Origin: Calditrichia bacterium
GTDB lineage: Bacteria > Calditrichota > Calditrichia > JAJRVZ01
Length of the DNA stretch: 64,000 nucleotides
Assembly (NCBI GenBank): GCA_963777955.1
Contig: CAVZSQ010000013.1
Span: 480,001-544,000, forward strand
Direction: 5' to 3'
The position numbers and the translations under genes were made by a program. Positions 1 to 22,800 of the stretch are shown here, one piece after another (position 1 is the stretch's first letter; the number at the start of each line of letters is the position of its first letter). Under the pieces are notes generated by a model. The model made no database searches. It was given only the letters and a program-made list of their open reading frames with translations, and was not told the DNA's origin.

Positions 1-17
1 AGAATTGTCAGCAAATA

Positions 18-1184: not shown

Positions 1185-1205
1185 CCATAGTTGGCCTGTC
1201 TATAA

Positions 1206-1709
1206 TTAATAGATTGTATACCCGATCATAATCAGCATGGTGACCGCAGCGCAGGTCTTGACCGACAATCCCCCGATTTTACCGATGAACGAACCGATTC
1301 CGGAGTTCAGTGCTGCGCGCAAATTATAGGACTTGAAGAATTCCAGCAAGGTGCCCCCTAAAAAGACTCCCAGCACAGACCCGATTATGGCACCGATGAC
1401 CGGGGTGACAAAGGCGCCGCTGATGGCTCCGGCTATTCCCCCGATAATGCTGCCGCTGATGCCCCACTTGGATGCGCCGTATCTCCTGGCTGCTACAATG
1501 ATCAGAAAATATTCTAAAGACTCGGAAATCAATACTATCAGAAAGAGGGTTAATACAAATGTGAAGGTAAAACTATTGAAACTCGTGATCAGACCATAAA
1601 CCAGTGAATCCAGGGCTATCAGTAAATTACCAGGCAGACCGAAAAAATTCGAAAAGAATGAACCCAGTACTGCGGTTAAAAAAACAATTTCAACGATCAG
1701 ATCCAACAT
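1206..1709 (-). CDS. DUF456 (YqgC-like) membrane protein
   Basis: 167 aa, hydrophobic. Motifs GLPGN and ARRYGASKWG...GSIIGGIAG...PVIGAIIG are characteristic of DUF456. Confidence 0.8.
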   Translation of the reverse strand: MLDLIVEIVFLTAVLGSFFSNFFGLPGNLLIALDSLVYGLITSFNSFTFTFVLTLFLIVLISESLEYFLIIVAARRYGASKWGISGSIIGGIAGAISGAFVTPVIGAIIGSVLGVFLGGTLLEFFKSYNLRAALNSGIGSFIGKIGGLSVKTCAAVTMLIMIGYTIY

Positions 1710-1721
1710 CGGCTGCTACAC

Positions 1722-2447
1722 CTATTTGTTTGAACCAGAGGCAAAGGCATAACGACGGGTTTTACTGTTTAATCCCAGTCTTTGCAATTCACCCCGCACC
1801 ATCAGCCAGCCAACCTTCATAAAACCATAATCTATGGTATTCAGTTGCTTCTTTATTTTATAGGCTCCGTATTCCGGATTTTTTCTGACAATCATCTTTA
1901 TTTTTTCTATTAACGATAAATCAGCAGTGGCCATTTCACCTCTTTCGATAATTGTCTCCGTTACTCCGGTCGCAGCCGCTGTTTTAGAAGCACCTGTTCC
2001 CGTAGCAGCAGTTGCTGCCGTCTCTTTACCGGCAACCACTTCCGGCTTCTTGAAACTGACTTCTTTGGCTACAGGTTTGCCCGCCGATTCCAAAACTTCG
2101 AACTTGTTGATAGCTTCGTCAACTGTGTCGTATACATCCAGAATATGATGGAATTCCAGCAACTCAAATATTTCATATACATCCGGTACCATTCGTACTA
2201 ATTTCAGATCTCCACCATTTTCCCTGATGGATTTAATTTCACTGATAAAGATACCCCAGCCCGCGCTGCTGATATAATCCACATTTCCCAGATCCACCAC
2301 AATAAAGAATCGCCCCTGTTTTAATAAAGAATCTAAAGCTCGCTCCAATTCTGAAGACGTAGTGGTATCAATGTAGCCACCCACTTTAATTATTGAAATC
2401 TGATTTCTGCTCCCGGCAACTTCTGCTGATACCTGAATGCCTTCCAT
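1722..2447 (-). CDS. STAS anti-sigma-factor antagonist (RsbV/SpoIIAA-like) with Ala/Thr linker and C-terminal HTH-like domain
   Basis: N-terminal STAS with GYID...VDLGNVDYISSAGWG (phospho-acceptor Ser motif), low-complexity linker and a ~55-aa C-terminal helical domain. GGAGG RBS upstream. Confidence 0.85.
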   Translation of the reverse strand: MEGIQVSAEVAGSRNQISIIKVGGYIDTTTSSELERALDSLLKQGRFFIVVDLGNVDYISSAGWGIFISEIKSIRENGGDLKLVRMVPDVYEIFELLEFHHILDVYDTVDEAINKFEVLESAGKPVAKEVSFKKPEVVAGKETAATAATGTGASKTAAATGVTETIIERGEMATADLSLIEKIKMIVRKNPEYGAYKIKKQLNTIDYGFMKVGWLMVRGELQRLGLNSKTRRYAFASGSNK

Positions 2448-2477
2448 TCAACTCCTCCTTAATCTGATTGGGACAAT

Positions 2478-5400
2478 CTAACCTTGGTTAGATTTCGATA
2501 GTAAATCGAGTATTGCCTTGTTCTTCAATAAATTTTTATTGGCAATTTTTTTACGTACTGCATCCAGATCAGATTGACCAGCTGAAACATCTTTGCTCGC
2601 CTTTTCTCTGATCTGCAGATTTTTTATCCCGACTTCGTTAATCTGTTCTAGTATTGTATTCAATAATATATTTTCTTTTTTTATGTATATCAACACTTCT
2701 TTAGCATTTTCAATAACAAACTGTTCTTCCAACTCCGCACTGTTCTCTGACAAAAATTCAATTACACTGATGACCTGGGTGAACAGTTGCCTTACATTCA
2801 GCATATCTTTTAAAAGATGGTGGGTGGATATAATTTTCAGGGATAGTACAATTTTTATAAAATCTTCCTTCTTAAAATTTCCGTCCGTCCAGTTTAAAAC
2901 GACATCATCGATTAATTTTAAATCATCCTGTATCGTATCGTAAAAAGTATCCAGTTTTTCCGGAGTGATTAGCTGAACAGGTGCAGCCAGCGTGGGCACT
3001 GTTTCTGCTTTCGGTTCTTCCGGAAGCGCCTGGAAAACATTTATCGGTACTGCCACCGAAGGTATTTTAGGCGGTGGAGTTGTTTCGACTTTGGATTCAA
3101 TACTCGCTTCCTTAACCGGTGCTGCAGGCGCTTTGAGTTTGCGGAGCCGCGGCGGAGTTATTTTAGCCTCTTTCGGCTTGTAAGTTTCTGTCTTGGTTTT
3201 AAAGTCAATCCTTGGTTCAGGAAGTTTTTCCTTGACCGGCGGTTTTTCGCTGACTGGTTGAATTGCATCTGCCGCAGGTATGCCCGCCTCAGCTGTTGCC
3301 GGTTCTTCAATTCTCTTTGAAACTAATTGTTTATCAGCAAACCTTTTTTCTGATTCCAGCGGCGGGGGCGGCATGAATTCAGCCGGTGCTTTGGTCCCGC
3401 GTTTTTCCGAAATAACTTTTTCTGCCGATTCATAATTCAGGATGACCTGGCCATCCAGGGTTAACAACGGTGTTCCGGGCAGTTTGATCCGCTTACGGCC
3501 GCCCCGCTTGATAAACGCTTCACGTTTTTCGGCAGTGGTCAGACGGGCATGTTTGAGTTCTTCGTAAATACGACGGGGTTCCAACAATGTAAAACTATAC
3601 TTTTCGGTATTCAATTCATCACTGATCCGCTTGGGCCCAAATTCAGGATTATTGCGTACTACTTCAAATAACTTGGTTTTATCTTCAATACTGATATGTT
3701 TTTTCTCGATATAATCTGTCTCATATAAAGCTTCCTTCAGTCCTTCCCAGCCAACTTCTTCTTTAATACGCTTGTACTTGCGGTACATATAAGGGGATAC
3801 CAGCATCTGCTCGCAGGCTTCTTTTACCGGAACCTTGACCTCTTCAATCAACCGGAACAGTTCCTTTTGAATGGCATATATGACTTCACCCTGCATTAAC
3901 TTTTCTTTGATCGCTACAAAAGTGATGTCATCGTTCTGAGGATATCCCTGGGTATGGTGTTTGATGTCGTCTTTCACCCGCTGGATGAATTCCGATACAT
4001 CATAGTTGGAAAACCGGCGAATTACATCCAGAAAGCGTTCTTCCCGGTATAATTCACGCTTGGGATTCATGGCTTCGGTAACACCATCGGTGTACAGAAC
4101 CAGCAGATCATCTTCCCGTAAACGTATTGTATCTGCCTGTATTTTCTGATCAAACAGGGTCAGATCCGGTAATTGAATACCTACCGGAAATCCGGATGGA
4201 TTTAAATAATAGGTCTGCTTGGTGCTGCCGCGATATAAGATCATCGGATTGTGGCCGGCACTGGCATAATGAATAATACGGTTACGGCTGTCCAGCACCA
4301 GATAAAACATGGTCACGAACATACCCCGCTTCATGTCATCGGTCACGAAACGGTTGACCTTGCTCAGTACATCGGCCGGATTTTTATTGCCGCGTGCTTC
4401 CAGACGCAGAGCAGTACGGATCATGGTCATGATCAACGATCCCGGTACGCCCTTTCCGGCCACATCGGCTACGCAGATACCGATCGTATCATTATCGACT
4501 TCCACGAAGTCGAACAGGTCTCCGCCCACTTCTTTGGCCGCTTCATAATAGGAGGCCAGTTCATACCCTTTTACCTGCGGGAAGTCGCTGGGCAATAACA
4601 TCTGCTGAATTTCCTGGGCAACCTGTAATTCTTTTTGCAGACGCTGCTGCTCGATCAGGTTAACCTGGGCCTCGCGGAACTTATTGGTCATCAGGTTAAA
4701 GGCCTGGGCAATTTCACCCAATTCGTCGGAAGCATCGATATCAATTTCGTCCTCATCGATGGTACCCTGGCCGACTTCCTTGACCCAATCAGCAAGGGAA
4801 TGGAAGGGGGTAACAATGCGGTCGATCAGAAAATAACTGCCTACATAACTGATTAAAAGAATTATTATAAGGTAAATGATCAGATTGGTTTTACTCTGAC
4901 TGGCCCGTGATTGGATATAATCGTCCGGGATCCAGATATGTGCCCAGCCGATTAATTCCCCCTGGCCGCGCAAACCGGTATGGATTTCGGCGGCAAAATC
5001 ATATAAGGTCAGAGTATCCTCAGCGGTATATTTATATACGCTCAGGTAGCGCAGAGTATCTCCGGTATCCACCACAGACTTCTTTTCGGGATAGTTATAA
5101 ATCCCCTGTGATTTTAGCGGTGTACTGCCGCTGACGATCTCCCGGGCCGAGTCGACAATGAATGTCTCATAAATCAGATCAGGATTATTTTTTTTGAGTG
5201 AATGAGCAAGGGAAAACAGATCCAGATACTGGTCTTTTTGTAAATATTCGGAACTATTATCGGCCAGCGAGAGGGACTGCACTTTGATGGTCTGGATTGC
5301 CTCATTCAGATTAGTTTCATCAACCTGAAAATACAATAATGAAAAGATGACTAAAGCTAAAAAGGTAATTATCACCGAAGCTGTAATGGTATGCCGTGTG

Positions 5401-5873
5401 CGCAGGGTCAGATCTTCCCAAAGGGCTTGCGGTTTGGTCTGCGGTATGACTTCACGCTGTTTGGTCAGACGTAATTCGTTGCCGCGGCTGGTAATATTGT
5501 ACTGGACATCATCCATCAACTTGCGCATCATGAAAATGCCCAGTCCACCCTTTTTACCGATCTGGATATATTTTTCCAGGTCCGGCGTGGAAGCCTGCCG
5601 CGGATCGTAACTGATACCCTGGTCGACGACAACGATGGTCAAACTCTGCCGGCGGACAATCGCCTTGATGGTGATCTCGCCGCCCTTGATATCACGGTAG
5701 CCATGGCGGATAATGTTCGTACAGGCTTCTTCGATAACCAGTTTGAAGGAGTTGATCAGGCGGTCTTCATATCTGTACTTTTTGCCGATGTGATCGATAA
5801 AATCCCTTACCTGGCCCAGATAACTCATCTGTGCCGGTATGGCGATCAATTCCTTTCTGACATTTCGAAACAT
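2478..5873 (-). CDS. Membrane-bound partner-switching sensor: RsbW-like Ser kinase (HATPase_c_2) - TM - periplasmic domain - TM - HAMP - SpoIIE/PP2C phosphatase - tandem HTH - Pro-rich linker - helical bundle
   Basis: Kinase motifs EEACTNIIRHGY, VDQGISYDP, GGLGIFMMRKLMD. Two TM segments. HAMP DELGEIAQAFNLM. PP2C motifs EVGGDLFD, ADVAGKG, SAGHNP, LYTDGVTEA, DDIT. Confidence 0.9.
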   Translation of the reverse strand: MFRNVRKELIAIPAQMSYLGQVRDFIDHIGKKYRYEDRLINSFKLVIEEACTNIIRHGYRDIKGGEITIKAIVRRQSLTIVVVDQGISYDPRQASTPDLEKYIQIGKKGGLGIFMMRKLMDDVQYNITSRGNELRLTKQREVIPQTKPQALWEDLTLRTRHTITASVIITFLALVIFSLLYFQVDETNLNEAIQTIKVQSLSLADNSSEYLQKDQYLDLFSLAHSLKKNNPDLIYETFIVDSAREIVSGSTPLKSQGIYNYPEKKSVVDTGDTLRYLSVYKYTAEDTLTLYDFAAEIHTGLRGQGELIGWAHIWIPDDYIQSRASQSKTNLIIYLIIILLISYVGSYFLIDRIVTPFHSLADWVKEVGQGTIDEDEIDIDASDELGEIAQAFNLMTNKFREAQVNLIEQQRLQKELQVAQEIQQMLLPSDFPQVKGYELASYYEAAKEVGGDLFDFVEVDNDTIGICVADVAGKGVPGSLIMTMIRTALRLEARGNKNPADVLSKVNRFVTDDMKRGMFVTMFYLVLDSRNRIIHYASAGHNPMILYRGSTKQTYYLNPSGFPVGIQLPDLTLFDQKIQADTIRLREDDLLVLYTDGVTEAMNPKRELYREERFLDVIRRFSNYDVSEFIQRVKDDIKHHTQGYPQNDDITFVAIKEKLMQGEVIYAIQKELFRLIEEVKVPVKEACEQMLVSPYMYRKYKRIKEEVGWEGLKEALYETDYIEKKHISIEDKTKLFEVVRNNPEFGPKRISDELNTEKYSFTLLEPRRIYEELKHARLTTAEKREAFIKRGGRKRIKLPGTPLLTLDGQVILNYESAEKVISEKRGTKAPAEFMPPPPLESEKRFADKQLVSKRIEEPATAEAGIPAADAIQPVSEKPPVKEKLPEPRIDFKTKTETYKPKEAKITPPRLRKLKAPAAPVKEASIESKVETTPPPKIPSVAVPINVFQALPEEPKAETVPTLAAPVQLITPEKLDTFYDTIQDDLKLIDDVVLNWTDGNFKKEDFIKIVLSLKIISTHHLLKDMLNVRQLFTQVISVIEFLSENSAELEEQFVIENAKEVLIYIKKENILLNTILEQINEVGIKNLQIREKASKDVSAGQSDLDAVRKKIANKNLLKNKAILDLLSKSNQG

Positions 5874-5882
5874 TTAATTGTC

Positions 5883-7783
5883 CTATTTATTTTGGCTGCG
5901 TTTCAGACGATCTTCCGCACCGCTGATCGCTTCCAGTACTTTTTTATTATAGGGGTGCTGTTTTAATATTTCCTGCCAGATCTCGATGGCTTCATTATAT
6001 CGTCCTAATAAAAACTTGTCCACCCCTTCCAGATAGCGGCGTTCGGCTTCCGGTTCCATTTTTTCCGTTTCGGCCAGTGCTTCAATCTTGGATTTGGTAT
6101 AATACTGGCGGATAAACTGATTGCCCGGATCCTGCGACAATACGTCCTCAAATATTTTCAAGGCGTCTTCGTATTGCCCGATATCAAATAACATCAAACC
6201 TTTCTGGATATTTTCCTGTAATTTAACTCTTTCAACTAATGTGTCAACCTCTTTTTTCACCTGCGAGTCATCGCTGCTGAGCAGGCGGGCTTCAGACAGC
6301 AGGCGCAGTGCTTCCGAATAATTTTCCTTCTCGAATTCCTGACGGGCCCGCAAGACCAGGGCATTGATATCCTCCCTCATCCGGCGCTGGGTGGTATTGA
6401 TCGCATCCCTGATCGGCTTATTCTCAGGATCACGTTCCAGCGCCTGATTAAAAGCAATTAAAGCCTCGGTGTACTGTTTTTTATCTAAGTATAATCGGCC
6501 TTTCTGGTACTGATCTTCAATAAATTTTTTATCAACTTCGGCGCGATTTTTATCGATGGCCGCTAAGATGGCCTGGTTCTGCCGATCGTCAATTTCCCGG
6601 CTCAATAAGACATTGGCCGAATCAAGCATGATCCTGGCTTGTTGATGGAAAGGCTCCTGGTTGATCACCTCGCGGTATTCAACCACGGCATCAAGATACT
6701 TCTTTTCCCTGAAATATGCATCTGCTTTCTGTAAATGGTCGGCAATGGATTTTTGTTTATCCGCTTCGCGAATTTCAGTAATGATGCGCTCCTCCTCCAA
6801 CCGTCTTCAATTCCTGTACGATGGCAAACATTTCATCGCGATTCATGCCAAAATTGGCCGTGAGTGAAATCCGGTGAATGGAAGACAACATGCCTTCGCT
6901 ACTGGGATTACCAAAGGCATAATCGATCTGGAACATACTGTATTGCACCCCGGCACCAAAAGCGATACCATTATTGCTATAACCTAACCGGACCCTGCCC
7001 ATATCCATAAAACTGTATTCAGTTCCAAAACCTACAGCCATGTCGGTATCCACGCTTTTGTCCAGATCCAGCAGTACATTCAGCGAATTACCTTCACCAA
7101 AAAAGGGGATCTTACGGGCATATACCAAAACGGAATACCAGCGGCAGAACATCAGCTGAACCACCTTCGCCCACCTGTGGCGGAAATAGATTTTCCAGAT
7201 TGAGACCTAACGACCAGTCACGCATATACGGGGAGAGACTGAAAGTCGGCCGGTACATTAATCCTAAATCCATGCCCACACCAACGCCTACTGTCTTGCC
7301 ATAACCGGTCAGACCGGGCCAGGCCGAGCGGTTTACTTTGACGGATAAACCGCCTGCCAGATCCCAGGGAAGTTTCAGACCATATGAAAAATACACCTGA
7401 TATCTTTCCCGCGAAAAGGTAGCCAGATCCTCAAAATTTCGATTGGTTTGGGGAATATCCCCAATTCCTATCCGTGCAATACCTATGGCGAAGGTACCCA
7501 GATCCAGGGTTGGATAGGCATATCCTAGAAAGTCATAAGAGGCACCTTCGTACAGGGAAGCATGAAATAAGGTCACGCTCTGCTGGTAGATGTAATCCAG
7601 ACCGGCCGGATTCCAATAAACAGCAGTGGGATCATCGGCCAGTGCTGTAAAGGCATTGCCCATGCCCATGGCCCGGGCCCCAAAGCCAAAATCAAACAAA
7701 CTGCGCGTGCCGGCCTGCCCATTTCCATCCTGGGCCATCAATATGCCGGGCAAGAATATCAGAAGTAATAAAAATTTCTTCAT
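5883..7783 (-). CDS. PorV/PorQ-like outer-membrane beta-barrel fused to C-terminal TPR domain (reconstructed across two frameshifts, ~7115 and ~6800)
   Basis: Signal peptide MKKFLLLL and GARAMGMGNAFTALADDPTAVYWNPAGL (PorV/FadL-like N-terminus). Barrel continues in ORF 6775-7164 to HRISLTANFG. Removing one base gives VQELKRLEEERII, continuing into TPR ORF 5883-6800. Confidence 0.7.
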
Positions 7784-7835
7784 AGGCATACCCTGTATAT
7801 ACTTATAACTTTTAATTCTCATCTCGACAACTCAC

Positions 7836-10800
7836 TTATTTTAGATAAGCAATTTTTGTGATATAGGTCTGTGTCGCTCCACCGCCGACAGGTTTGATTT
7901 GCAACTGACACAGATATACATCATTAAGCACCGTTTTCCCGCGGTCATTTTTACCATCCCACTTGATATCATCATATGATCCACGAGATCTTCTATCCTT
8001 TTTCGTCCAGACCAATCCTCCGGTCAGAGTAAAGATACGTATTTCAATAGTCGGAATCCTGCTCCAGATATACCAGGATTATGGTTTCGTCTTCATTCCG
8101 GCCAAATGGATTAGGATAATTCCGGAATGCTTCTTTGGAATTATGGGGTACACGACTAATCACCCCCGATCTGCCACCCATCGCTTTGAGGCACTCTTCC
8201 ATCTGGACCCGCCACATCCAAGGACCATATGCGGGATTTACATCATAGGCATAAATATCGAGCAGTACACATCTGAAACTGCGATTGGTAGCGTCTAGAT
8301 TTAAATTTAGCCAGTACTATCACTGTATCCTCTAGTACCTGCAGCCATGACTGAATCACTCCGGTGAATGGGAAGGAATAATGGATTCCCACGTACTCAT
8401 TAGTAATGTCAAGCGAACCAAATTCTATTGCGTCCTTGGCCAGAGCCTGTAATTCATGGTAACGATCCAGATTAACCAGCGTCAAGGATTCAAACATATT
8501 GACCAAAGTTGAAGTCATCAACGTATCGTCACTGCTGGCACCAATAAAAGACAAGTTTTAAATTCTTAAGGGTCACATCATTCTGCAGCCCCGCTAAATC
8601 CAGCATTCGAAATTTCAAAAGCCAATAAGGGTGCATTATCGTCACCGCGTCTGGAACATTTGATTTTCGATCAGGGAATCGGTCAGATTGGTAACTATTA
8701 TACTTCTTTTTCTCAGTGCTGATTGAGAATGACCTGCTGCTGTTACTTGCATCAACATATGCAGGATCGCCACTGTTACGGTCATCCGGTACACCCGGAT
8801 CAGGGTAAAAGTTATAGTTTTGGCAAATACCGTGGTGTCTGGCGCCAGAACACTCCAGATTACCAGGGTATCATCAATGGCAAAGGTGCGAATACTAGTC
8901 TGGTGGTGTTAAAGTAAATATATCCGGCCGTGAGATCTTTACCTGGCATAGACCGGTAACATCAGCCATACCAGTAATACCGTTAAGATCCCTTTCTACC
9001 TTGGTACGGAATTCAATTGTCTGGCCCACTGAAACCAGGCCGTTCTTTGCGGTTTCCGGTGAACTAATTTCTGCCGTCAACATAACCCGGGCGTACGGCT
9101 GCACCAGAATAGAATCATTAACCGTCTGACTTTCTATCTCAGTTCCACTGTTATTATCTGTTACCCAGGCTGTTAGACTAAATCTTTGCATAATTGCACT
9201 GAGCAGAGTTTTTTCACTCCTGATATTCCAGGTGATTACCTTTGTATCCGGAATATATTGCACCGGATTGCTAACAATGAGTCCCGTACCAGGAGGCAAT
9301 GATATTACAGCACGCATATTTGTTACATTGGCGCTGAAATCGAAATAGCGGGTGTAGGTAAAAGTCTGCCCTGCCGATACAGTATCCGCAGGATTGCCGC
9401 CGAGAATTGATATTTCAGCTATGGTTTCCGTGGTAACCGGGATTAATACCTGCCGTACCGCAGCATTGGCCGGCCGCAAGGTATTTTCATCCAGCGGGGT
9501 TGTATCGATCCGGATAGCAATCGATCCGGCTCCCGTTGTCTCAGCCTGTTGTTTCAACGCAACCGAAAGTTCGTTCAGCAATCTCTGCTGTTCCGCTGCC
9601 GCTACGCTGTTCTGCTGGCCATAAGCGCTTCTGGAACTGGTGGCTCCAAGTTTGGACAGTATTTCACTGATCGGCGAGGCAGCATTTTTATTTATGGTAG
9701 TGGTATTGGCATCGATCCACCAGCTGACCGTATCACCGACTGTATAGGTTTTCTGAACAGCATTATCCGTACAACTGCTGCAAAGGCTGAACAGAGAATC
9801 ATCAACTTGTACTGAGATCAAACCCTGGCTGCCGGGAACAATATTGGCCGTACCGGCTCGACTGATATTAGCCCGGATCCTGAACTGCTGACCTTCGGAA
9901 ACACTGCCATCTCTTGCACCAACCGGTTCTACAATAGCCGCTGTAAATACAATACTGGCCTTGGTTATAGTTTGAATGGCCAGCGTGGCATTCGTACTGA
10001 CCGGTGTCAGATTTGCATCGGCATTGAAATTCGCTGAGGCCAACAGGTTCAGCACTGACCAGTCGCTGGCATCTTTCGGAGCCCGGATATACCAGGACAA
10101 ATCATAAACACTCTGCTGAACGTTCAGGAGCTGGCGAATTAAACTGCTATCCTGCGTGGAATAACCTTCTCCGACCGGCAATTGCAGTTTAACCTGGCGG
10201 TTATGGTCAAGCAAGGGATGAAAAGTCACCCGGGCATCTATCCGGATGGAATCCTGATCGGTCGAGACAGTAACACTGTCATTCGTAACGGGACTGCTGA
10301 ACTGTATGGAATTTATTACAATGGAGGCCTGGATCGCATTCACCAGTAACTGGCTGCCGAATGAGTTGATCACGGCATCCTGACCGGTGTTCTGGTCAAC
10401 AGGATAAATCAACTGTGATATCATCAGGGTATCATTAATACCAGCCGTCTGTGCCAGCGATTGTACCAGCCAGCTGACCGAGCGATTGCTAAATGTATAA
10501 GAAGTGTCGGCGGCGGATAAGATCTGGTAATTGGCGGGAACATTCAGGCGTAATAATCCCGGACTAAATGTTGCCGTGCCGCTACTGGTGACATTTAATC
10601 GTACATAGAACCGCTGTCCAACCGCCACGGTCGAATTTGTATCCCCGCTCAGCGTGGTGACTGTACTGCTCAAAGTCAGCACCGCCGGCATATCGGCATG
10701 AACCTGCGCGGTATTTTGAAGTCGGTTGCCCTATACTGATCGGTTGGCCGGTGGTGGCATCAATCGCTGAAACAATTCTGGCCAGGTAAGTATAATCACC

Positions 10801-13800
10801 AGCAAGCGGAATGCTATCCCGGTAGGTATATATGTATTGAGAAGCGGGGGATATATTCTCCGCCAGGACTATCTGGCTTAGCAGATTATTATTGCGAAGT
10901 ATATCGAAAGTCACACTCTTGGCTGTATCGGTTCCGCTGTTGGTTATAAACAACTGCAACTGGAAGGGACGATTTACGTTGACTTTTGGCTTATTGGGTG
11001 CAAGACTATTCCGGACCATGATCAGGCTGTCAATTTTCAGAGCAGCAGGTAATACCACCAGCACGGTATCGGGGCTGCCGGTAAAATTAAATGTATCGAC
11101 CAGAGCCGGAGTACGCTGATCACTGTACCAGACACCCGGTTGCATTACGATTACTCCCGTATCAGCCTGGGCATTCAGCGTAAATGCAGCAGAATAAGGC
11201 CGGCTGTTCCCGGCCGGCAGGATATCCGGTAATGTCGGACTCAATGCGGATGAAATCCAGTTGGCCGATACATCCTTGTTATCACTGGTCCTGCGAAAAT
11301 AAGGTATGATATTTTTTATATCTGCAGTAGAATTACCGCTATTCTGCAGGGTATAAGATACCTGGATATTTTCCTGTCCCTGCCGGACCATATCAGGTAA
11401 CAGATTGAAACTGGTAACCGTAATGGTTGCCGGCTGCAGAATCCGGATGGTGTTCAGACTTACCGTTTCGCGCAGGGTATCTCCGCTGATCTGGATTCCG
11501 ACAACACGCAGGGTAACCGCATAGTCGCTGTTGACCGCCTCGCCCGCCGGAATCATCAATGGTTGAAATTCGATCCAACTGGAATCCTGCGCCAACAGCA
11601 CATAATTGGCCGAAGGATATGTACGCTGGGGTGTGGAAAACCCAAATTCCAGGTAAGAAAGTTCCTTCACGATGGACAGCGAAGCGGTACCCGAATCGTA
11701 CAAACTGATGGTGAATGGGACATTCTGTCTGGGCACCACGCTGGCCGGAGTCAGGGTATTACTCATGTATGTAACCCTGGCGCCGATCAGTACTCTGAAA
11801 CTGGTTATCGGCTGCAGAGATGTTTTAATGATATTTCCGCTGTTCAGGCTCAGCCGGGCAAAAACATTAATCCGTCCAAGCGGAAAATCCTGCGGAACAT
11901 CAAAGACAAAACGTAATTCATTATTGGGTATAGTCTGCAATACTGTAAGCGAATCGGCCCGGCTAATTGTAGATACCAGCAATTCATTTTGTGCCTCATC
12001 CTTAAAAATCAATCTGGTACCGAGTGAATCGATTGGTATTGGAGCTCCATTATTTTCAACCTGCATGATCACCGTGACATTTGACTGACCCTGCAAAACG
12101 TACCCGGGGGAAACCCGTGCCGGGCCGAAGATAATTTGCCCGCCGATCGTGATCTGCCCGGCCTCGATTTGCTGAACATATGAACTGCCATTGCTCCAGC
12201 CGGCTAAAGTAATTGTAACCGGATAATCACCCGCCGGGACGCCGGTTATTAAAGTTTGTCTGAATGCAAGTAAAGTACTGTCAAGCCCGTTCAGAGTTTG
12301 ATCGGAGGTACCGGCCAGCGGAATAGCATAGACCGTCCCGTTAATACTTAAAGTAGTCCGGGCTGAATCAAGAGCAATACCTGCCTGACCGTTGTTATAA
12401 AATCGGGCTGTGAGTTGAACTGTTGTATCGACTCCGAATCCCGCCGGTTGAATGTTAAGCCAGAGAGGATCCGCCGGAGTCTGCAGAAAAATATTGTGCT
12501 GGGCGCCGGCAGAAATCGGAGCCTGGGAATTTACATCTATACCGGAGACCGAAACGCTGGCCTGCACATCCCCAAGAATACCATTGGCCGCGATAATGTA
12601 AAAACGAATGGTGTCGGAACTGTTTCCGGCAAGTATGTACGGCGTCGAACGATTATCCAGTATGTAACGCTGGAACCTTGAATCTGCCGTGCTGAACGTC
12701 ATGGAGATATTCTCGATCCTGGCCGGCGAAATACCGCCATTGCGGAATTGAATGACAGCCAGTACGCTGTCCTGATTCCAGCTGACCGTATCCGGAGTAA
12801 GGTCAAAGCTTAATATATTTAAAGCGGCAATATTTTGAACACTCAGAGTATCCCTGCTGGCTGCCGTGGTGATATTAAATGGCTGATAGTCATTAGCATC
12901 ACTGTAGGTAATAAAGCCGTCGACAAAATAACTACCAATCGTCGCCAGCGGGGAGACCGAAACATTATAGTCGATTACAGTGCTCTGTCCGGCTGTGAGA
13001 AATAATGGTATAGAAGGCGTTGATCTCCGGCTTATGACAAAGTTGCCATCGGCATTCGCCGCGCCTAACATCATATTCAGATCGACACTATCAAGTCGCG
13101 CCGTGGCGCCACTTTGATTGACAATGGTTAAACTGGCCGTCAGACCGGTTTGGCCGGTACTGGCCACATCAGGAGTAATCGCTGCCGACTGCAGTACCAC
13201 AACCGGACGTGTCTGCACCGTCCAATTGTCTGTAGTTACGGCTCCGCTCAGGAGAATAGTCTGGCCTGATGATATCTCCGTGGCCTGTATGCGGGCATCG
13301 ATTGTCTCCAGGCCCAGCATAGCCGTTGGCTGTACAGAAACCTGAATGGTGAAAATCTGTGAAGTGCCTGCATTCAGCACCACCGGTAATGCCGGTAATG
13401 CTTGTGCAGTCGTATAATTTGCCAGGCCATTGGCAAACATCAACAGCACGCTATCCACCCGGATGGCGGTACCCCCTAGATTCCGTAAAGTGACCGAAAC
13501 CGGAATGTCAGCCTGACCACGACTGACCAGTTGAGGAGTCGTGATCACGGACGCAATCTCCATATTCGATACTGATTGCACCTGCCAGATCCAATTTGCG
13601 CTGCTGGTAAATTCAGCACTCGCGCCGGAAACCTGGTTCGTGTAAGCAACCTGGGCCCGTAAAGTATCATACCCCACTGCTGAATTACCGGCTACATTGA
13701 TTGTATCTACCAGTATTCTCGTGCTGTTGCCATTCAGGATAATGGGTAATAATGGCCGGCGCTGGGTATACAGACCGATCTTACTGGTCAGGTTCAATGA

Positions 13801-16800
13801 GTTAACCTGCACGGCAGCCTGTCCGCTATTGACCATTCTGATATAAACCAGAATATCACTCTGACCCTGAACCACATATGGCAGCGAGTAGATCGAATCG
13901 ACGGTCACATTCGGCTGGGTGAGCAGGAACCAGTTGTCCGTCACAGCCCCGGATACATCCTGTACCCGCTGGTTGCTGTTGATATCATATCCGTAGACCT
14001 GTGCCGAGATTGTGGTGTTGCCGGCCGGAGCACTGCCCGGAATATGTACGCGCAAATCAAAAGCCCTCGTTCCGCCGCCGTTTACTGTAAACGGCAAGGC
14101 GGGAGTAACTGCCAGGGGATCTCCGTAAGGAATCGTCCGTAATGTATCTATAACCACAGATGCCTGTCCGGTATTACCAATCGTTACCGTCAGGGTTGTA
14201 TCCATATTTTGAGTTACCGTATCAGTACTGACCACCAAACCCTGGACAATTGTGTTTGCCACCGTTTGAATACGCAATGAATCACCCAGGATGATGGTAC
14301 GATCAAAACTTGAACTATTTTCATGTCCGACCAGCCGGAGTGAGTATGGGTATATACCCGCTGCTGCGGTCATGGCCGCCTGGTTAAATTGCAGGTTCGG
14401 AGTACTATTCCCGGGAATGACTGTAAAATTCTGAACAGGGAAACTTTGTCCGTCAACCTGCAACCTGGTCAAACTTGTATCCAGATCCAAATCTGCCTGG
14501 CCGGTGTTCTGCAATTGCACTTCCGGTTGAATTAACTGATTCCGGGAGATCAATGTGGGAGTAACAGCACTGTAAACTATATTTACGGCACGCTGGATCA
14601 GCCAGCTGTCAGTGGTATCAGCACCAACATCGGAAACCGGGGAGTCTGTAAAAGTATCCCGGCCATATACCGACGCATTGATCATTTCCACACCGCTCGG
14701 AGAGGCAGCATTCAGTTGAACCAGGAATTGAATGGCAGTGGTCGACGCACTGTCCAGAGTAATAGCCGGTTGTTGAAAAACCGTAGCCGGAATATATAAT
14801 CCGCGAATTGTATTTAACCGCACGGAATCGATTACCACAGAATTATTTCCGGAATTGGCCACCCGGAGCAGAACCCGGATGCTATCCTGGCCGGTACTCA
14901 CAGTATCCAGATCAGCCTGTACGGCAAGGATATTCACCCCTCCTGAACCAAAAACCTGCCAGGCCGAAAGATACGCGGATGTATGCGTTCCGTCCTGAGT
15001 GCGGTTTACTTCCTGGAATTGCACTCCGCCGCGCAAAGAATCAACACCAAGGGGTGCCGTAGTAAGCACATCCACATCGTAGGTGATCGTGTCCTGTTGA
15101 CCGCCATCGATGAAGAATGGAAAAGTCGGCGCGATTAATTCACGATTATAATAAGTATTACCATTTCTGAAATTAAGCGTAACCGAATTCAGCTGAGCAC
15201 GGGCTTGTCCATAATTGCGTACCGCCAGCGTTGTGGCAATATCATTTTGACCCTGGCGGACTGAAGCAGGATTGGTAATAGCAAACACGCGGACATCAGC
15301 AGGTGTCTGCAGCAGAATTGAATCGGTTTGTACACTTCCCAGGACATTCACACTTGAACCTGTAATCTGATCGGTTCCAAATGCATTCAGATTCAAAGTA
15401 ATGTAACCACTGTCTAGCGGCGTTGCACTGGCAGTCAACCGGAACTGAGCAGTAATCCTTTGGCCGGCATTCAGCAGATAAGGTATATTAGGCGCCATTA
15501 ATTGAGCGGATAGTATCGGATGAATAACTATACCATCAAAAGTCATTTGCAAAGTATTCAGTTGAACCGCTGCGTCCCCGGTATTGCCGATTACCGCATA
15601 GGCCAATACGCCGGTTTGACCCAGAGTCATGCTCGTGGTTGCCGTATAAACACTGTCGATCACCAATGCGGCCTGATTGCCAATCCTCCAGGTCTTGGGA
15701 GTGACTGCACCACTGTCCACATAACTGGCGGTCAGATTATTGGCATCCCGGTATCTGACAAAACCATCCACCCATATCGTATCACCAATTACTGAATTTG
15801 ATATATCCACATTATAAAATATGGTATCTCTCTCCCCTCCGGACAGTGAATCTTTTAGTGTGGCGATCAGGATCGAATCAATTATGGAACCTGCCGGTAC
15901 GCCATACAGGCCGGTGGTATCCATGTAAGCAGTAGCCAATCCCTGATTGCGAATTTGCATTTCCACCAGCAGATTCTGCTGACCCCGGTTGACCTGCGGA
16001 TAACTGTTGCGGATTGACGTGATCACGATCTGGGGTGCTGACTGAACCAGCCAGGCATCAAGGTAAGCACTCTGGTCTGCTGCGATTGCCCCGGTACGCT
16101 GATTGCGGCCGATAACAAATCCGCGAATGGAATCGATCCCTGTCGCAGCAAAGGTGTTTATGGTTACCGTAAAATCAAACTGCTGCGTCGATAACGGAGC
16201 AATGGTAAACGGCAGTACGGGCGCAGTTAATGTTACCAGATTATTATTGTTCAAAAATTGCAATCCGATGCTGTCAGCGGCGCCGATGCGTGCTCCCACC
16301 TGGCCGGTATTAGTAATCTGCATCTGAATAGTTAAACCGGCCTGGCCCTGACTGACCCTGCTGGCAATGGCATTAATAGACATAATATCAAGATTGGCCC
16401 GGCTCAAGACCGTCCAGGTATCATAAATAACAGGATTATTCAGCACATAAGTACTGCCGCTATTCTGATCCTGATAAGTGACCGCTACCCGGAAAGTATC
16501 TAATCCGGTGGCAGCATTCTCAGCAATATCTATTGTATAGTTAATAAGTGCCGAATCACCGCCATTGATTGTTAGTGGGAAAATAATTCCGGACGGTGCC
16601 AGGGTATATGTAGAGTTATAGTCAAAGACTATATCAGCGGCACTATTGATCCGTGCCGTCGCATTACCGCTATTCCGAACCCGAACCGCAATACTTTGAT
16701 CCTGTTCACCCTGACTCACATTGATATCACTTAACAGGATGGAAGAAAGAATTAAACTGCTTGGTGATTGAACCTCAAGTTCATCTCCCGGAGCTGTAAG

Positions 16801-19800
16801 CAGAGTACCGCTGTAAGGCACCCCATTCTCAGTTCCGTTCAGGATCAACGTACCGGAATAACTTCCCTGTGCCAGGCTGATATTTGCGGCAGCGAACCGC
16901 AGGATAGAATTAGTAGCTGCGGTAATTGCCTGATCTCCGTTGAGAGTAAAAGTCTGCGTACCGAAAGTCAGCGTTGTTTGCGCCTGCTGGAGCAGGACAT
17001 TCGCATCTCCGGTGTTGTTTACTGTAACCTCGAATGAGGCCGGCTGCCCGTTTGATACGGTTTGTGGTGTGTAACTGACCAGGGCAACTTGTGCAGCATT
17101 AATGATTGTAAACGAGTCCGTGGTAATAGACGAATTGTCATACACAAAATTGCCATTGACCGCCAGTGTCCCGGAGATATATCCATCCACCTGCACATTA
17201 CCGAGAGTAGCACTGACCGGTACTGCCACACGGAACGAAAAACTCGCCTGGGCTTTTGCCGGGATATTAACCGGATTGGCCGGAGCGGGTATTAAGGTAA
17301 AACCTAACTCCGGATTAAAAACCAGCGCAGGATTCAGGTTCTGCAGAAGATAAGCGCTATTATTTTGAACTACCATGGTGATATCGGGTATGGTATCACC
17401 CAGACTTACAATATTACCCGCTAAACCAATAATGGTAACAGAGCGAATAACCAGCGGCTCGATTGCTAATTCAGCCGGCGATGAGTTTAACGTACCATTT
17501 ATCGTTTCTCCGCCTGACGTAGCATCAAAAGTGAATGCCGGGGTATAATCACCCATAATAAAATTATCCGCGATAATTCCATCAATAAATTTAAGCCGGA
17601 CTGTATTCGATCGTGCAGGCATCGCCGCCGGTGAATCCAGTTGCGCCGTGGTAGTATTGATGCCATCCGAGAAACTTAAATATGTATTAGCCAGGTTTAA
17701 ATTGACAACATCCGGACCTGGATTGGAAAAATCTGCATAAAAAGTTAATGTATCACCCGGTAAACCGACCTTGGGATTAAGTGAATTACTATTATATCTG
17801 ACAGCATAGACATTGAATGTGGTGGTATCGTTTGCTCCGATGATATAAGCGCGGGCAATACTCGAATCTAAATTAGCCGGTGGAAAATATACACTCTGGG
17901 CCAGGCCCGAACTATTCGTGCTGGTTATCGGATTGGATACACGCGTTGCCGGTAAAAATCCGACTGAACGGTTGGCCACCAGATTATTATACTGATCCCT
18001 GACTTCGGCCTGCAAAAGCCGTCCGCTGCCGGCAAAGGTTGTCCGGTTATTGCCGGTAATTGAAGTAATATTAACTGCCGCACCTGGTATAACAGTTGCC
18101 CGGAATAAAGCAGGATCCGCACCTGAAGAAGTGGCTCTGAGCGTATCATAACCAGCCTGGGTTCTCAGGACCCAATTCGCCTGAGCATAGCCGCCGGAAT
18201 TAGTCAGCAAGCCGGCATTGACTGTATCACCATCAGCAGTGTTAGTCCAGTCGATCGTTGCACCTGAAACCGGATTCATATACTGATCAACAAGCCGGAT
18301 CCTCACCGCTAAAGCCAACTGGGTTCCGGCCACACCTGACTGCTGATTGCCGGAGTACAGGATAAGCGAATCCCCTACATCGGCCAGTGCTGTGGCTTGA
18401 AACAGAATCTGACCGGGATCGAGTGTATTATTCATCGCCACAACAACATAATTTCCAATTTTGGATCCCATGGTAAAAGTAGTTTGAGCCAAACCACTGG
18501 CGTTGGTCTGTGTTTGAATCGGATTGAGCGAGTAATCCCCGCCTCCATCCGGTAAAGCTAACATACCAAAGGCAATGGTAACTCCGGATACCGGATTACC
18601 CAGACTATCCGCAACCCTGACCACCATAGGCAGGGGTAAATTAGTTCCAACAACACCCGTTTGATTGTTACCTGAAACTAAGATCAGACTATCGGCAGAT
18701 GACGAACCTACAATTGCATAAAATGCCGCTGTAGCGGGTATACTGGCCACAGTGGCATAAGCAGTATCGGCACCCAGGCTGCTGCGCAAACGCCAGTTAG
18801 CACCGGCATAACCTGAATTATCAGTAATATTTATTGCCGGAATCGAGCTGGCCGCTGGACGAAGGAGTAGTCCAGTTTACGGTAATATTTGGCACCGGAT
18901 TGGTAAAACGATCGATAACCCGTATCCGCGGCGGATCGGAGACGAATGAACTGGCCGAACCGGTCTGCACAAAACCGCCGCCGACAATTATTATTGAGTC
19001 GGGATTTGCCGGACGTACCCGGATCAAACCTGAAATATCGCCTAATACAGTATGACGAGCTCTGAAAATTGCAGAATTGACCGTCCGGAAATAAAACCGG
19101 TTAAATGTCGCTGAATCTGAGTTGGCAAAGAAACCGATCGGATCGCCATCGGTTGACCATAAAACTCTCTGGTCACCTAAATAATTATTTTCCAGATCAT
19201 AACCGGCGGCATAAAGGGCAACCGAATCGCCGGCAATCCGGGTTAAAGTGTCCAGTTCGATCCCGCCGCCGCCAGGCCCTGTGCGGATGATCAGTTTTGT
19301 CAAACCGCCGGGCTGGATGACGATTGTTCCGGTTGAATCATTATTCCAACCTGAACTGTTGGTTGTATAAATAAATCCGTTGCCTGGTGCAATCGGGAAA
19401 ATATTCAAGTTAGAGGTATTGGTGCTGTCGGTAAATCCTGATATTGTTCCGGTCTTTTGCCAGTCTACATTTACATCCGATACATAATTGCTGTTTACAT
19501 CGTAGCCGGCGGAATAGAAATGAAGATTATCGCCGACGACGATCGTATCAGCAGCAAACTCTGCTCCGGCACCGTCAGGTGCATCACGTATGACTAGTGA
19601 GGCCACGGTACCTGTCCCAACCGTAATTAAACCTGTATAATCAAGAATACTTGGATTGCTTGTACTTATGGCCCGGATCAGACCTGAACCAAGTGTTGTT
19701 GCATCGAATACAATGCTGTCCAGTAAATTAGCAGTTATGAATTGTCCGATCGGGGCATTTAAAAACCAGTTTGCATTCCTGGTGCCTAGATAATTACCAT

Positions 19801-22800
19801 AAAGATCATAACCGACCGCATACAATGTTAAAGTCTGATCCGTGGTCAGTGTCGTGTCATCAAACGCCTGACCTGCCGTGCGTATTGTCTGTATTTTTAA
19901 TTCTGCCAATGTCCCGCTAGTAATTGTAATAGTACCTGTTGAATCAGGAGTTACACCGCCAATAGAACTGGTGGCGATGATCCGCCCGGCATCGGGTGCG
20001 ATACTCGGAGAAAAGACATAAGAACTTCCGGAACCTGAAACTGAATTGGCTAATCCGATCTCCGACCAATTGACTGTAACATTGCCCGTGTAATTTGCAT
20101 ACTGGTCGTATCCCGCTGCATAGAATACAATTGAACTTGTGACAGTAATGGTTGAATCAGCAAATTCTACTCCCTGATTATTATTTGCTGTTCGTATGCG
20201 CACATAATCAAGACTATTGGACGTAATCGTGATTAGCCCGCTCACCCCCTGCTTGGCGTGATCTGACTGGCTCCAGCCGGTCAGCGTAAAACTCTCCGCG
20301 GTATTGTCATATACCTGAAACGTCGCTACTCCCGCCGTTAAACTCTGACTCGCCGGCGTCTCTATAACATTGGCACTGCTGCCGATTAATTCCACCACCG
20401 TGCTGTTATCGCTGCTTACTAAATTGTTATTGCCGTCATAGGCACGGACCACTACGTTTATATTCACCCCGGCCAGCGCACTGTATACCGCCGGCGTCAC
20501 CGTGTAGTACGATATGCCTCCCGCTGTTCCCGTCACCGTGAACACTATACTATCCGCAGGACTGCTCACTATCACCGCCGCCACCAGGTTCGCACCCGCT
20601 ACCGCTCCGGTCGTTAACGTCGCCTCCGCTATGCCATTGGCACCGCTGCTTACCGTGCGCACTCCCAAACCACCTAAATTTCCGCCGCCGCTTATTACCC
20701 GGTATCTGATACTCTCATTATTCACTACATTACCATACGCATCCGTCACCAATGAACGCAGTAACTGATCCGTTCCTGCCACCACGCTCACTCCGCTACC
20801 GCTCGATACCGACAGGTTCGTCGCCGCATTCGAACTGACCGTCACTACCCCGCTAACCCCCTGCTTGGCGTGATCTGACTGGCTCCAGCCGGTCAGCGTA
20901 AAACTCTCCGCGGTATTGTCATATACCTGAAACGTCGCTACTCCCGCCGTTAAACTCTGACTCGCCGGCGTCTCTATAACATTGGCACTGCTGCCGATTA
21001 ATTCCACCACCGTGCTGTTATCGCTGCTTACTAAATTGTTATTGCCGTCATAGGCACGGACCACTACGTTTATATTCACCCCGGCCAGAGCACTGTATAC
21101 CGCCGGCGTCACCGTGTAGTACGATATGCCTCCCGCTGTTCCCGTCACCGTGAACACTATACTATCCGCAGGACTGCTCACTATCACCGCCGCCACCAGG
21201 TTCGCACCCGCTACCGCTCCGGTCGTTAACGTCGCCTCCGCTATGCCATTGGCACCGCTGCTCACCGTGCGCACTCCCAAACCACCTAAATTTCCGCCGC
21301 CGCTTATTACCCGGTATCTGATACTCTCATTATTCACTACATTACCATACGCATCCGTCACCAATGAACGCAGTAACTGATCCGTTCCTGCCACCACGCT
21401 CACTCCGCTACCGCTCGATACCGACAGGTTCGTCGCCGCATTCGAACTGACCGTCACTACCCCGCTAACCCCCTGCTTGGCGTGATCTGACTGGCTCCAG
21501 CCGGTCAGCGTAAAACTCTCCGCGGTATTGTCATATACCTGAAACGTCGCTACTCCCGCCGTTAAACTCTGACTCGCCGGCGTCTCTATAACATTGGCAC
21601 TGCTGCCGATTAATTCCACCACCGTGCTGTTATCGCTGCTTACTAAATTGTTATTGCCGTCATAGGCACGGACCACTACGTTTATATTCACCCCGGCCAG
21701 CGCACTGTATACCGCCGGCGTCACCGTGTAGTACGATATGCCTCCCGCTGTTCCCGTCACCGTGAACACTATACTATCCGCAGGACTGCTCACTATCACC
21801 GCCGCCACCAGGTTCGCACCCGCTACCGCTCCGGTCGTTAACGTCGCCTCCGCTATGCCATTGGCACCGCTGCTCACCGTGCGCACTCCCAAACCACCTA
21901 AATTTCCGCCGCCGCTTATTACCCGGTATCTGATACTCTCATTATTCACTACATTACCATACGCATCCGTCACCAATGAACGCAGTAACTGATCCGTTCC
22001 CGCCACCACGCTCACTCCGCTACCGCTCGATACCGACAGGTTCGTCGCCGCATTCGAACTGACCGTCACTACCCCGCTAACCCCCTGCTTGGCGTGATCT
22101 GACTGGCTCCAGCCGGTCAGCGTAAAACTCTCCGCTGTATTGTCATATACCTGAAACGTCGCTACTCCCGCCGTTAAACTCTGACTCGCCGGCGTCTCTA
22201 TAACATTCGCACTGCTGCCGATTAATTCCACCACCGTGCTGTTATCGCTGCTCACTAAATTGTTATTGCCGTCATAGGCACGTACCACTACGTTTATATT
22301 CACCCCGGCCAGCGCACTGTATACCGCCGGCGTCACCGTGTAGTACGATATGCCTCCCGCTGTTCCCGTCACCGTGAACACTATACTATCCGCAGGACTG
22401 CTCACTATCACCGCCGCCACCAGGTTCGCACCCGCTACCGCTCCGGTCGTTAACGTCGCCTCCGCTATGCCATTGGCACCGCTGCTCACCGTGCGCACTC
22501 CCAAACCACCTAAATTTCCGCCGCCGCTTATTACCCGGTATCTGATACTCTCATTATTCACTACATTACCATACGCATCCGTCACCAATGAACGCAGTAA
22601 CTGATCCGTTCCTGCCACCACGCTCACTCCGCTACCGCTCGATACCGACAGGTTCGTCGCCGCATTCGAACTGACCGTCACTACCCCGCTAACCCCCTGC
22701 TTGGCGTGATCTGACTGGCTCCAGCCGGTCAGCGTAAAACTCTCCGCGGTATTGTCATATACCTGAAACGTCGCTACTCCCGCCGTTAAACTCTGACTCG

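Follow-up and report, generated by a model that had tools for sequence, protein, structure and literature searches.

A transposase-type helix-turn-helix module common to a membrane kinase-phosphatase fusion and its neighbouring STAS protein in Calditrichota and two other bacterial lineages

Introduction

The outputs of partner-switching systems often remain unknown where no sigma factor is involved, the target of the Vibrio fischeri STAS protein SypA being an example that is still open. A locus of a Calditrichia bacterium (GenBank assembly GCA_963777955.1, contig CAVZSQ010000013.1, positions 480,001 to 544,000; this stretch of 64,000 nucleotides (nt) is “the window” throughout, and positions are counted from its first letter) raises the same question. 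Two adjacent genes encode a fusion of an anti-sigma-type serine kinase with a SpoIIE/PP2C phosphatase (“the fusion”) and a small protein made of a STAS domain and a helix-turn-helix (HTH)-like tail (“STAS-HTH”), and a segment resembling this tail stands behind the phosphatase of the fusion. Where does the shared domain come from, and does it give the phospho-switch an output of its own?

Results and Discussion

Homology between the STAS tail and the fusion module

The first-pass annotation of this DNA had aligned 49 residues of the STAS tail (residues 187-235, positions 1743-1889) without gaps to 49 residues of the fusion (residues 739-787, positions 3513-3659) and had counted 18 identities by hand; alignment and count (18/49) were reproduced exactly, and the string described as preceding the fusion segment (beginning ELFRLIEE) was found at fusion residues 671-714 (3732-3863). 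The BLOSUM62 score of the 49-residue pair was 77, a value reached by none of 100,000 shuffles (highest shuffle 22), BLASTP between the two regions gave E = 1e-9 (22/69 identical), and an hhalign comparison between a profile of 49 tails and a profile of 45 fusion modules gave 98.7% and E = 2.7e-16 over 69 columns. The mutual similarity was significant by all three measures, and by these comparisons the STAS tail and the segment behind the SpoIIE domain are homologous. Tail columns 6-74 corresponded to fusion columns 63-133 only, so that the tail represents the second half of the fusion module. The relationship was recovered from either side: the tail as query gave 81 domain matches in the 83 long proteins collected, and the fusion segment as query gave 121 domain rows (not de-duplicated) over 120 STAS-HTH proteins.

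Transposase-type origin of the shared domain

Both segments had been likened to the tandem HTHs at the N-terminus of IS481-family transposases. For the fusion this held: positions 4-114 of the 284 positions of the NCBIfam IS481 transposase model (NF033577) matched residues 671-785 (E = 3.5e-8), and the model matched all 45 orthologous fusion modules (~140 residues, best E = 2.3e-14). The STAS tail, however, turned out to be the second sub-domain only. Other transposase models also matched the 45 modules (IS3, NF033516, 41; ISNCY, 25; IS630, 14), as did the Pfam families HTH_23 (33), HTH_28 (25), HTH_32 (25), HTH_Tnp_1 (23) and HTH_29 (21), three of which, HTH_28, HTH_29 and HTH_32, had been proposed for checking together with HTH_21. 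The fusion module of the window itself matched none of these Pfam families at E <= 0.01, and HTH_32 on the window's own proteins stayed below threshold (E = 0.12). HTH_21 (PF13276) matched the tail alone with E = 2.9e-4 and 21.5 bits (18.1 bits on the whole protein), below its cut-off of 28.1, and matched 24 of 52 STAS-HTH orthologues at E <= 0.01 (best 1.6e-5). The homology of the tail to the HTH_21 region is supported via the fusion module and the IS481 and IS3 models, and the profile comparisons support a derivation of the shared segments from the bipartite HTH head of IS481/IS3-type transposases. That the similarity reflects merely the general HTH clan was rejected as the whole story, both sub-domains matching in order in 45/45 modules.

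The remainder of a transposase was not seen, as the first-pass annotation had also stated. The rve/DDE domain had no Pfam match at E <= 10 in the fusion or the STAS protein, the IS481 model was matched only as far as position 114-115 of 284, and the sole inverted repeat in positions 1-8000 that might have marked the ends of an insertion sequence (IS) was one AT-rich 16-nt pair. The only real IS481-type remnant found in the same genome was a broken gene on another contig (G000:C15:113097-113717), which covered model positions 80-284 and contained one in-frame TAA.

The AlphaFold2 (AF2) model of the fusion module (predicted local distance difference test, pLDDT, 88.5) showed two helical sub-domains with a weak hinge between them, the first with helices 3-20, 25-32 and 36-61 (module numbering, pLDDT 84-98) and the second with helices 71-83, 89-96, 108-117 and 123-131. 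In the model of STAS-HTH, the STAS fold was followed by a disordered segment (residues 129-172, pLDDT < 50) and by four helices (179-189, 195-202, 214-223 and 229-236; pLDDT 81-89) with the same pattern as the second sub-domain of the fusion. Structure searches were weak but agree with a transposase origin. The top VIA-align rows were the end-binding domains of MuA (Z 6.6) and TnsB and Tc3 (Z 5.1), all of them weak, and MuA I-beta matched the first HTH sub-domain, again weakly, with Z 5.7 and a root-mean-square deviation of 2.4 over 61 residues; Z values up to 6.6 are within the range of common helical arrangements, and many generic HTH folds were among the rows. With the two-domain model as query, Foldseek found no PDB entry at E <= 0.001, its non-significant top rows being TnsB, Pax paired domains and the SETMAR DNA-binding domain, and a PDB sequence search with the fusion-module profile gave nothing significant (best E 0.065). 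Look-alikes of residues 659-800 in the ESM Atlas (score <= 0.83, leads only) were all stand-alone HTH_28/HTH_32/HTH_23 clusters.

Distribution, linkage and copy number

Relatives were encoded by 510 stretches in species-representative genomes, and the locus counts given here use the best 80, which belonged to Calditrichota, KSB1 and metagenome-assembled genomes (MAGs) labelled Cytophagia or Bacteroidota. A fusion-type open reading frame (ORF) lay directly upstream of the STAS-HTH gene in 76 of the 80 loci; one exception (L062) was at a contig edge, and the genomes of the other three (L069, L072 and L074) encoded the fusion elsewhere, so that with two controls the partners co-occurred in 5/5 genomes. 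The tail profile matched in 78/78 Calditrichota genomes (>= 80% complete), in 61/61 genomes of the phylum of the KSB1-labelled MAG and in 18/20 genomes of a third phylum; the shared domain, present in orthologues, was found in 157 of 159 genomes and is near-universal in three little-studied lineages. Genomes of the first two phyla mostly had three matches, corresponding to two STAS-HTH proteins and one fusion, and those of the third mostly had two, which were unlinked. The genome of the window had exactly three, whereas its STAS genes numbered 10 and its good HATPase_c_2 genes at least 4. The fusion module was present in a single copy at a fixed position inside a signalling protein and in the same gene context in 76/80 loci, with no sign of mobility. 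The fusion and STAS-HTH pair is an old, fixed exaptation.

These numbers bear on the reading that the similarity is due to chance, or to a decaying and functionless IS remnant. The window's own Pfam matches below curated cut-offs and the broken IS481-like gene elsewhere in the genome could be taken in this sense, but no shuffle reached the observed score, hhalign gave 98.7%, and the module was in frame, intact, conserved in nearly all genomes of three phyla, modelled by AF2 at pLDDT 88.5 and accompanied by neither a DDE domain nor IS ends. Conservation and significance tests already refute this explanation, which we consider extremely improbable.

Relatives of the module in other proteins

The fusion-module profile, compared with 1.84 billion representative proteins, matched 728 at E <= 0.001, 185 at E <= 1e-10 and 56 at E <= 1e-30. 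Thirty-two of 150 listed proteins were scanned with Pfam, for most of them taking the best five families: 9 were kinase/PP2C fusions, 16 GT2 glycosyltransferases, 6 HTH-only proteins and 1 a STAS protein with two tails. The closer relatives of the fusion module were non-transposase proteins, and rve was absent among the families listed for the 32 (the best five for most of them). Three of the 9 kinase/PP2C fusions (P0257, P0258 and P0270) were “all-in-one” forms in which kinase, HAMP, PP2C and tandem HTH were followed by three STAS domains, the kinase of P0258 and P0270 not being among the five families listed; a fourth such protein, P0259, entered the tail search only. No tail domain was found after the STAS region in any of the four.

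The GT2 proteins (P0282, P0287, P0294, P0295, P0299, P0302, P0305, P0309, P0310, P0314, P0325, P0326, P0330, P0333, P0338 and P0340) were 600 to 2950 amino acids (aa) long and carried one or two closely related tandem HTH modules at the N-terminus. The few sources named were Patescibacteria and one Bathyarchaeia MAG. These proteins pair a transposase-type HTH with a membrane polysaccharide synthase.

Domain make-up of the pair and charge pattern of the shared domain

Both ORFs were intact and lay head to tail on the minus strand (Table 1). The order of domains in the fusion was RsbW-like kinase, transmembrane (TM) segment, periplasmic sensor, TM segment, HAMP, SpoIIE/PP2C, tandem HTH, linker and C-terminal domain, and those upstream ORFs of the 80 loci that were complete likewise had an N-terminal kinase and the phosphatase on one polypeptide. 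RsbW equivalog models of NCBIfam matched the kinase at E = 4.9e-22, yet far below their own cut-offs. Hydrophobic 19-mers at residues ~161-185 and ~329-354 predict two TM segments, and hence membrane anchoring, with a periplasmic region between them which carries sCache_3_2 in relatives; the fusion had no Response_reg match, and two TM segments, the periplasmic region and HAMP were what lay between the two enzymes. The tandem HTH module comprised residues 661-791. Its first sub-domain had no counterpart in the STAS protein, so that only the fusion carries a canonical HTH. Behind the second followed a conserved basic motif ending at residue 800, with G133, K139, P141 and G142 invariant or nearly so in 45 fusion sequences, and a Pro/Lys/Glu-rich linker which joins this motif to the C-terminal domain. 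The latter had zero matches in Pfam and NCBIfam; Calditrichota forms of ~1060-1280 aa had it and forms of ~870-920 aa lacked it, and no match to it was seen in forms of ~1225-1480 aa. TPR matches occurred in a protein search in relatives of comparable length to these longest forms.

STAS-HTH had 2135 relatives at E <= 0.001, of which the best 120 covered 96-100% of the query. The predicted phospho-acceptor, Ser61 (codon 2265-2267), lies within the invariant motif Y-I-S-S-A-G-W-G and aligned with the D-S motif serine (the phospho-serine position) of TM1442 and RsbV; S60 and S61 were invariant in 52 sequences. Residues 1-123 (window 2112-2447) were mostly invariant in these 52 sequences, which were only ~70% identical overall, the divergence being concentrated in the linker and the tail. 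So nearly frozen a STAS domain suggests that it may have several simultaneous binding partners.

The mean net charge of the tail was +7.8 (range +4 to +13 in 49 sequences), as compared with -11 for the STAS domain, -5 for the linker, -1.4 for the first and +3.5 for the second HTH sub-domain of the fusion. Tail-specific basic columns in helices 2 and 3 were occupied by Lys or Arg in 0.90, 0.96 and 0.98 of the sequences, where the fusion had Asp/Glu or Tyr at the same or neighbouring columns: the tail was basic at columns 34, 45 and 52 and the fusion acidic at columns 12, 19, 34, 39, 53 and 54, with invariant acidic residues in helix 3 of the fusion only.

A proposed phospho-switched output without a visible sigma factor

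Starting from the observed homology, domain make-up, conservation, gene linkage and charge pattern, we infer phosphotransfer, DNA binding, a masking step and target genes as follows. The membrane fusion would use its periplasmic domain and HAMP to sense a signal from outside the cytoplasm, and its RsbW-like kinase and PP2C phosphatase would set the phosphorylation of Ser61 on STAS-HTH and likewise that of the second STAS-HTH paralogue (see below). The STAS proteins would be the carriers of the output, their basic tail being the exapted second sub-domain of an IS481/IS3-type transposase head which would bind DNA and regulate genes for surface polysaccharides and adhesins. The acidic STAS domain and linker may mask or free the tail according to the phosphorylation state, as in CapS, a STAS and winged-HTH repressor which leaves the DNA once phosphorylated (Chambers et al., EMBO J 2026, PMC13373217). 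Helix 3 is acidic in the fusion's own copy, which would more probably serve to hold or place the tails than to read DNA. This partner switching in the style of SypE/SypA, with a DNA-binding output from the tail and no visible sigma factor, is the reading we tentatively prefer, while holding it to fall somewhat short of probable.

In favour of it are the presence of HATPase_c_2, HAMP, SpoIIE and STAS domains together with an invariant phospho-acceptor serine, the origin of the shared domain, a basic tail suited to a polyanion, the place of the paralogue in a biosynthetic locus with a 20-nt element nearby, the constraint on the domain (78/78, 61/61 and 18/20 genomes) and the CapS precedent.

Several observations weigh against it. 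The second sub-domain is not a canonical HTH, an 11-residue loop separating its helices 2 and 3, and HTH_21 is termed “HTH-like” by Pfam itself. The exposed positions of tail helix 3 differ among orthologues, a variation seldom seen in a recognition helix that reads one fixed operator, and in the tail of the second paralogue (STAS-HTH2) Tyr takes the place of Arg at the helix-3 column specific to the tails. A disordered linker of 45-50 residues separates STAS domain and tail here, whereas the two domains of CapS abut. A domain common to an enzyme and its substrates looks like docking rather than like a DNA-binding output, the tails are missing behind the STAS domains of the all-in-one relatives (4/4), and the nearest non-fusion relatives sit on membrane GT2 glycosyltransferases (16/32). 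The core of the 20-nt element resembles the ops/JUMPstart anti-termination element of polysaccharide operons more than it does an operator. The output of the STAS protein is post-transcriptional in SypE/SypA (PMC8256260) and in HenR/All4160 (bioRxiv 10.64898/2026.04.08.717354).

The shared domain as a possible docking module

The shared sub-domain may instead bind protein and wire these particular substrates to this particular enzyme, the output lying elsewhere; the tails would attach to the homologous domain of the fusion, or this type of domain would bind the invariant acidic STAS domain. Much of the distribution fits such a docking or assembly role. The domain forms a closed set in each genome, on one enzyme and its one or two presumed substrates, and the partners co-occur even when they are unlinked (5/5 genomes). 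Insulation between modules would be needed in a cell with so many parallel components (10 STAS and at least 4 good HATPase_c_2 genes). The charges at homologous columns are complementary, basic in the tail and acidic in the fusion, and the fusion is predicted to be anchored in the membrane. The tails are dispensed with where the STAS domains are fused to the enzyme, but the all-in-one forms keep their HTH module although docking would be unnecessary there. The net charge is moreover positive on both domains (+7.8 and +3.5), and docking leaves the first, canonical HTH of the fusion without a role. A precedent for protein contacts may be seen in the IS3-family transposase of IS911, which has a multimerisation domain M between the leucine zipper and the catalytic core (PMC1636345); domain M may correspond to HTH_21. 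A complex prediction for the fusion module and the STAS tail (score 0.01, mark 0.32) spoke neither for nor against binding. We regard a docking role as a possibility to be taken seriously, although a doubtful one.

The paralogue in the exopolysaccharide locus

STAS-HTH2 lies inside an exopolysaccharide locus, and the trio of the fusion and two STAS-HTH proteins was found in most genomes. In the genome of the window, its gene is flanked by that for a priming sugar transferase (Bac_transf) and by Poly_export, after which come AsnB, an AMP-binding enzyme and Wzz. Seven of 8 other genomes had the order Bac_transf, STAS-HTH2, Poly_export, Wzc-like; in the remaining one (L102:5536-8268, Calditrichota) the STAS domain and tail formed the C-terminus of a 910-aa GH3 glycosyl hydrolase.

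This arrangement would suit a post-transcriptional effector, that is, a STAS-HTH protein acting directly on the polysaccharide or secretion machinery, its basic tail binding a component of the machinery, an anionic lipid or a sugar-phosphate polymer instead of DNA. Besides the position of the paralogue between Bac_transf and Poly_export/Wzc genes and the GH3 fusion of one relative, the related tandem-HTH modules on 16 of the 32 proteins scanned, all GT2 glycosyltransferases, point this way, as do two published cases: unphosphorylated SypA acts on an unknown target (PMC8256260), and All4160 is a STAS-glycosyltransferase under the control of a PP2C phosphatase and a kinase (10.64898/2026.04.08.717354). 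The domain family is however otherwise known from DNA-binding regions, and the link to GT2 proteins consists of sequence similarity in other phyla only. An effector role of this kind appears unlikely.

A conserved ~20-nt motif, TTGAC-N2-GGCG(G/A)AGC(T/C)-N-TA, adjoined the STAS-HTH2 locus in sense orientation (L099-L106 and the genome of the window). In four genomes it immediately preceded STAS-HTH2, and in another four, the genome of the window among them, it lay upstream of Bac_transf. The copy in the genome of the window (G000:C26:61419-61446, L086:8420-8447) lies outside the window and has TAAC instead of TGAC. A weight-matrix scan found the element once in this genome (33.8 bits; next best 18.4), and the window contained 3 matches with <= 3 mismatches versus 3.9 expected by chance. 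Being single in the genome and not above chance in the window, the element was rejected as an operator common to both loci. It could be an operator as an alternative to an anti-termination element.

DNA-binding output and docking might also be combined in a second layer of partner switching, in which the basic tails would bind in turn to DNA, at genes for polysaccharides and adhesins, and to the homologous domain of the membrane enzyme with its acidic face. As a whole this proposal is unlikely. If true, a module which once synapsed transposon ends would now both address the substrates and deliver the output, and the system would be a sigma-free partner switching by membrane sequestration, universal in at least two phyla.

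Neighbouring genes

None of the conserved neighbours of the pair was a sigma factor gene; this result covers the conserved neighbourhood, and a sigma factor encoded elsewhere may be involved. Upstream of the fusion gene, an outer-membrane-like gene with TPR matches consisted here of three overlapping ORFs (7112-7822, 6775-7164 and 5883-6800), the pieces of which matched ORFs in 55 to 61 of the 80 loci, several of them single ORFs of ~640-670 aa. Further upstream, positions 7836-8554 contained short ORFs only, and a 598-aa ORF (8895-10691) overlapped a 2735-aa ORF (10582-18789); relatives of the 598-aa piece were found in 35/80 loci. Relatives often had single ORFs across 5883-10691, beside which the fusion and STAS genes are intact, and the split ORFs in this region are either assembly frameshift errors or real decay. 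On the other side, a 305-aa protein at 18-935 had a C-terminal DUF5655 and a weak HSDR_N-like match; with a relative in 1/80 loci it falls outside the conserved unit.

The exopolysaccharide locus of the paralogue and the giant surface proteins at the head of the same-strand run suggest that control of the cell surface is the role of the system in these little-studied bacteria of sediments.

Table 1. Coordinates of the genes and domains of the locus (positions in the window)
Feature	Positions	Strand	Residues or length	Basis and remarks
STAS-HTH gene	1722..2447	-	241 aa	begins 30 nt past the end of the fusion gene
STAS domain	2112..2408	-	14-112	PF01740, E = 4.5e-20
Acidic disordered linker	1932..2078	-	~124-172	variable in length and sequence
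HTH_21-like tail	1740..1922	-	~176-236	four short helices, strongly basic; HTH_21, E = 2.9e-4
Fusion gene	2478..5873	-	1131 aa	ORF and Pfam/NCBIfam domains
HATPase_c_2 (anti-sigma-type Ser kinase)	5460..5840	-	12-138	PF13581, E = 2e-27, above cut-off
HAMP	4680..4832	-	348-398	PF00672, E = 9.5e-9; directly behind the second TM segment
SpoIIE/PP2C phosphatase	3906..4493	-	461-656	PF07228, E = 4.7e-50
First HTH sub-domain of the fusion, canonical HTH_23/HTH_28 type	3717..3893	-	~661-719	AF2 helices and Pfam matches of orthologues
Second, HTH-like sub-domain of the fusion, homologue of the STAS tail	3501..3695	-	~727-791	hhalign, AF2, HTH_32
Conserved basic extension K-R-G-G-R-K-R-I-K-L-P-G	3474..3509	-		behind the second sub-domain; fusion only
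C-terminal domain of the fusion	2481..3068	-	~936-1131 (~195 residues)	no family match
DUF456 membrane protein gene	1206..1709	-		downstream neighbour; PF04306, E = 4.4e-27; in 42/80 loci
Outer-membrane-like and TPR gene	5883..7822	-		upstream; TPR matches, weak UPF0164; ends 9 nt before the fusion gene
Giant Ig-like surface protein genes	8895..24763	-	ORFs of 1980, 2735 and 598 aa	Big_1, CARDB; head of the same-strand run

Comparison with known systems

A likely output or wiring element can be read here from the sequence, as a transposase-derived domain present on the enzyme and on each of its putative substrates. The locus thereby offers a testable case of a STAS phospho-switch acting without a sigma factor, of parallel STAS/kinase modules kept apart within one cell, and of the DNA-binding head of a mobile element domesticated for bacterial signalling. 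Literature searches found no description of a STAS or SpoIIE protein with such an HTH, and “helix-turn-helix” and “DNA-binding” do not occur in the STAS review PMC8256260.

With the N-terminal region of IS481/IS3 transposases the fusion has in common a two-part helical module in the same order (HTH_28/HTH_23, then HTH_32/HTH_21). Unlike in these transposases, there is no rve/DDE core, there are no inverted repeats, the module is single-copy and conserved across phyla, and the STAS proteins keep its second half only.

SypE is soluble and has a central receiver domain, whereas two TM segments, a periplasmic domain and HAMP separate the two enzymes of the fusion. SypE has been termed a “multi-domain response regulator” (PMC3610818). 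SypE/SypA of Vibrio fischeri (PMC8256260, PMC4517449, PMC10120452) otherwise resembles the present system in several respects: an RsbW-like kinase and a PP2C phosphatase are on one polypeptide and the substrate is a small STAS protein, surface polysaccharide or biofilm is controlled with no sigma factor known as target, and the STAS gene lies in a polysaccharide locus, as STAS-HTH2 does here. SypE and SypA are however not known to carry HTH modules, SypA being a bare STAS domain.

In the Anabaena system HenR/Alr3423/All4160 (10.64898/2026.04.08.717354), too, a STAS domain whose state depends on a PP2C phosphatase and a kinase controls polysaccharide synthesis without a sigma factor, and this domain is tied to a sugar transferase, by fusion in Anabaena and as the product of a neighbouring gene here. 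In Anabaena the glycosyltransferase itself carries the STAS domain, the kinase and the phosphatase are two distinct proteins, and an HTH is absent.

The closest likeness of the STAS-HTH protein itself is CapS (PMC13373217), in which an N-terminal STAS domain with a conserved phospho-serine and a C-terminal domain of DNA-binding type are also combined in one small protein, with an anti-sigma-type kinase and an output independent of a sigma factor. The C-terminal domain of CapS is an ArsR/MarR-like winged HTH abutting the STAS domain, whereas the present protein has an HTH_21-like tail behind a disordered linker, with no match to a winged-HTH family; CapK is a separate soluble kinase, activated by single-stranded DNA, and is described there without a phosphatase or HTH; and CapKS adjoins immune operons and not envelope genes. 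DNA binding was shown experimentally for CapS and is only predicted for STAS-HTH. With CapS as a precedent (PMC13373217), a STAS protein with its own DNA-binding output is less novel than first assumed. As far as our searches reach, an exapted transposase module common to an enzyme and its substrates and fixed phylum-wide is not in print, and the parts and the principle are known, the fused kinase and phosphatase from SypE and the STAS domain joined to a DNA-binding domain from CapS.

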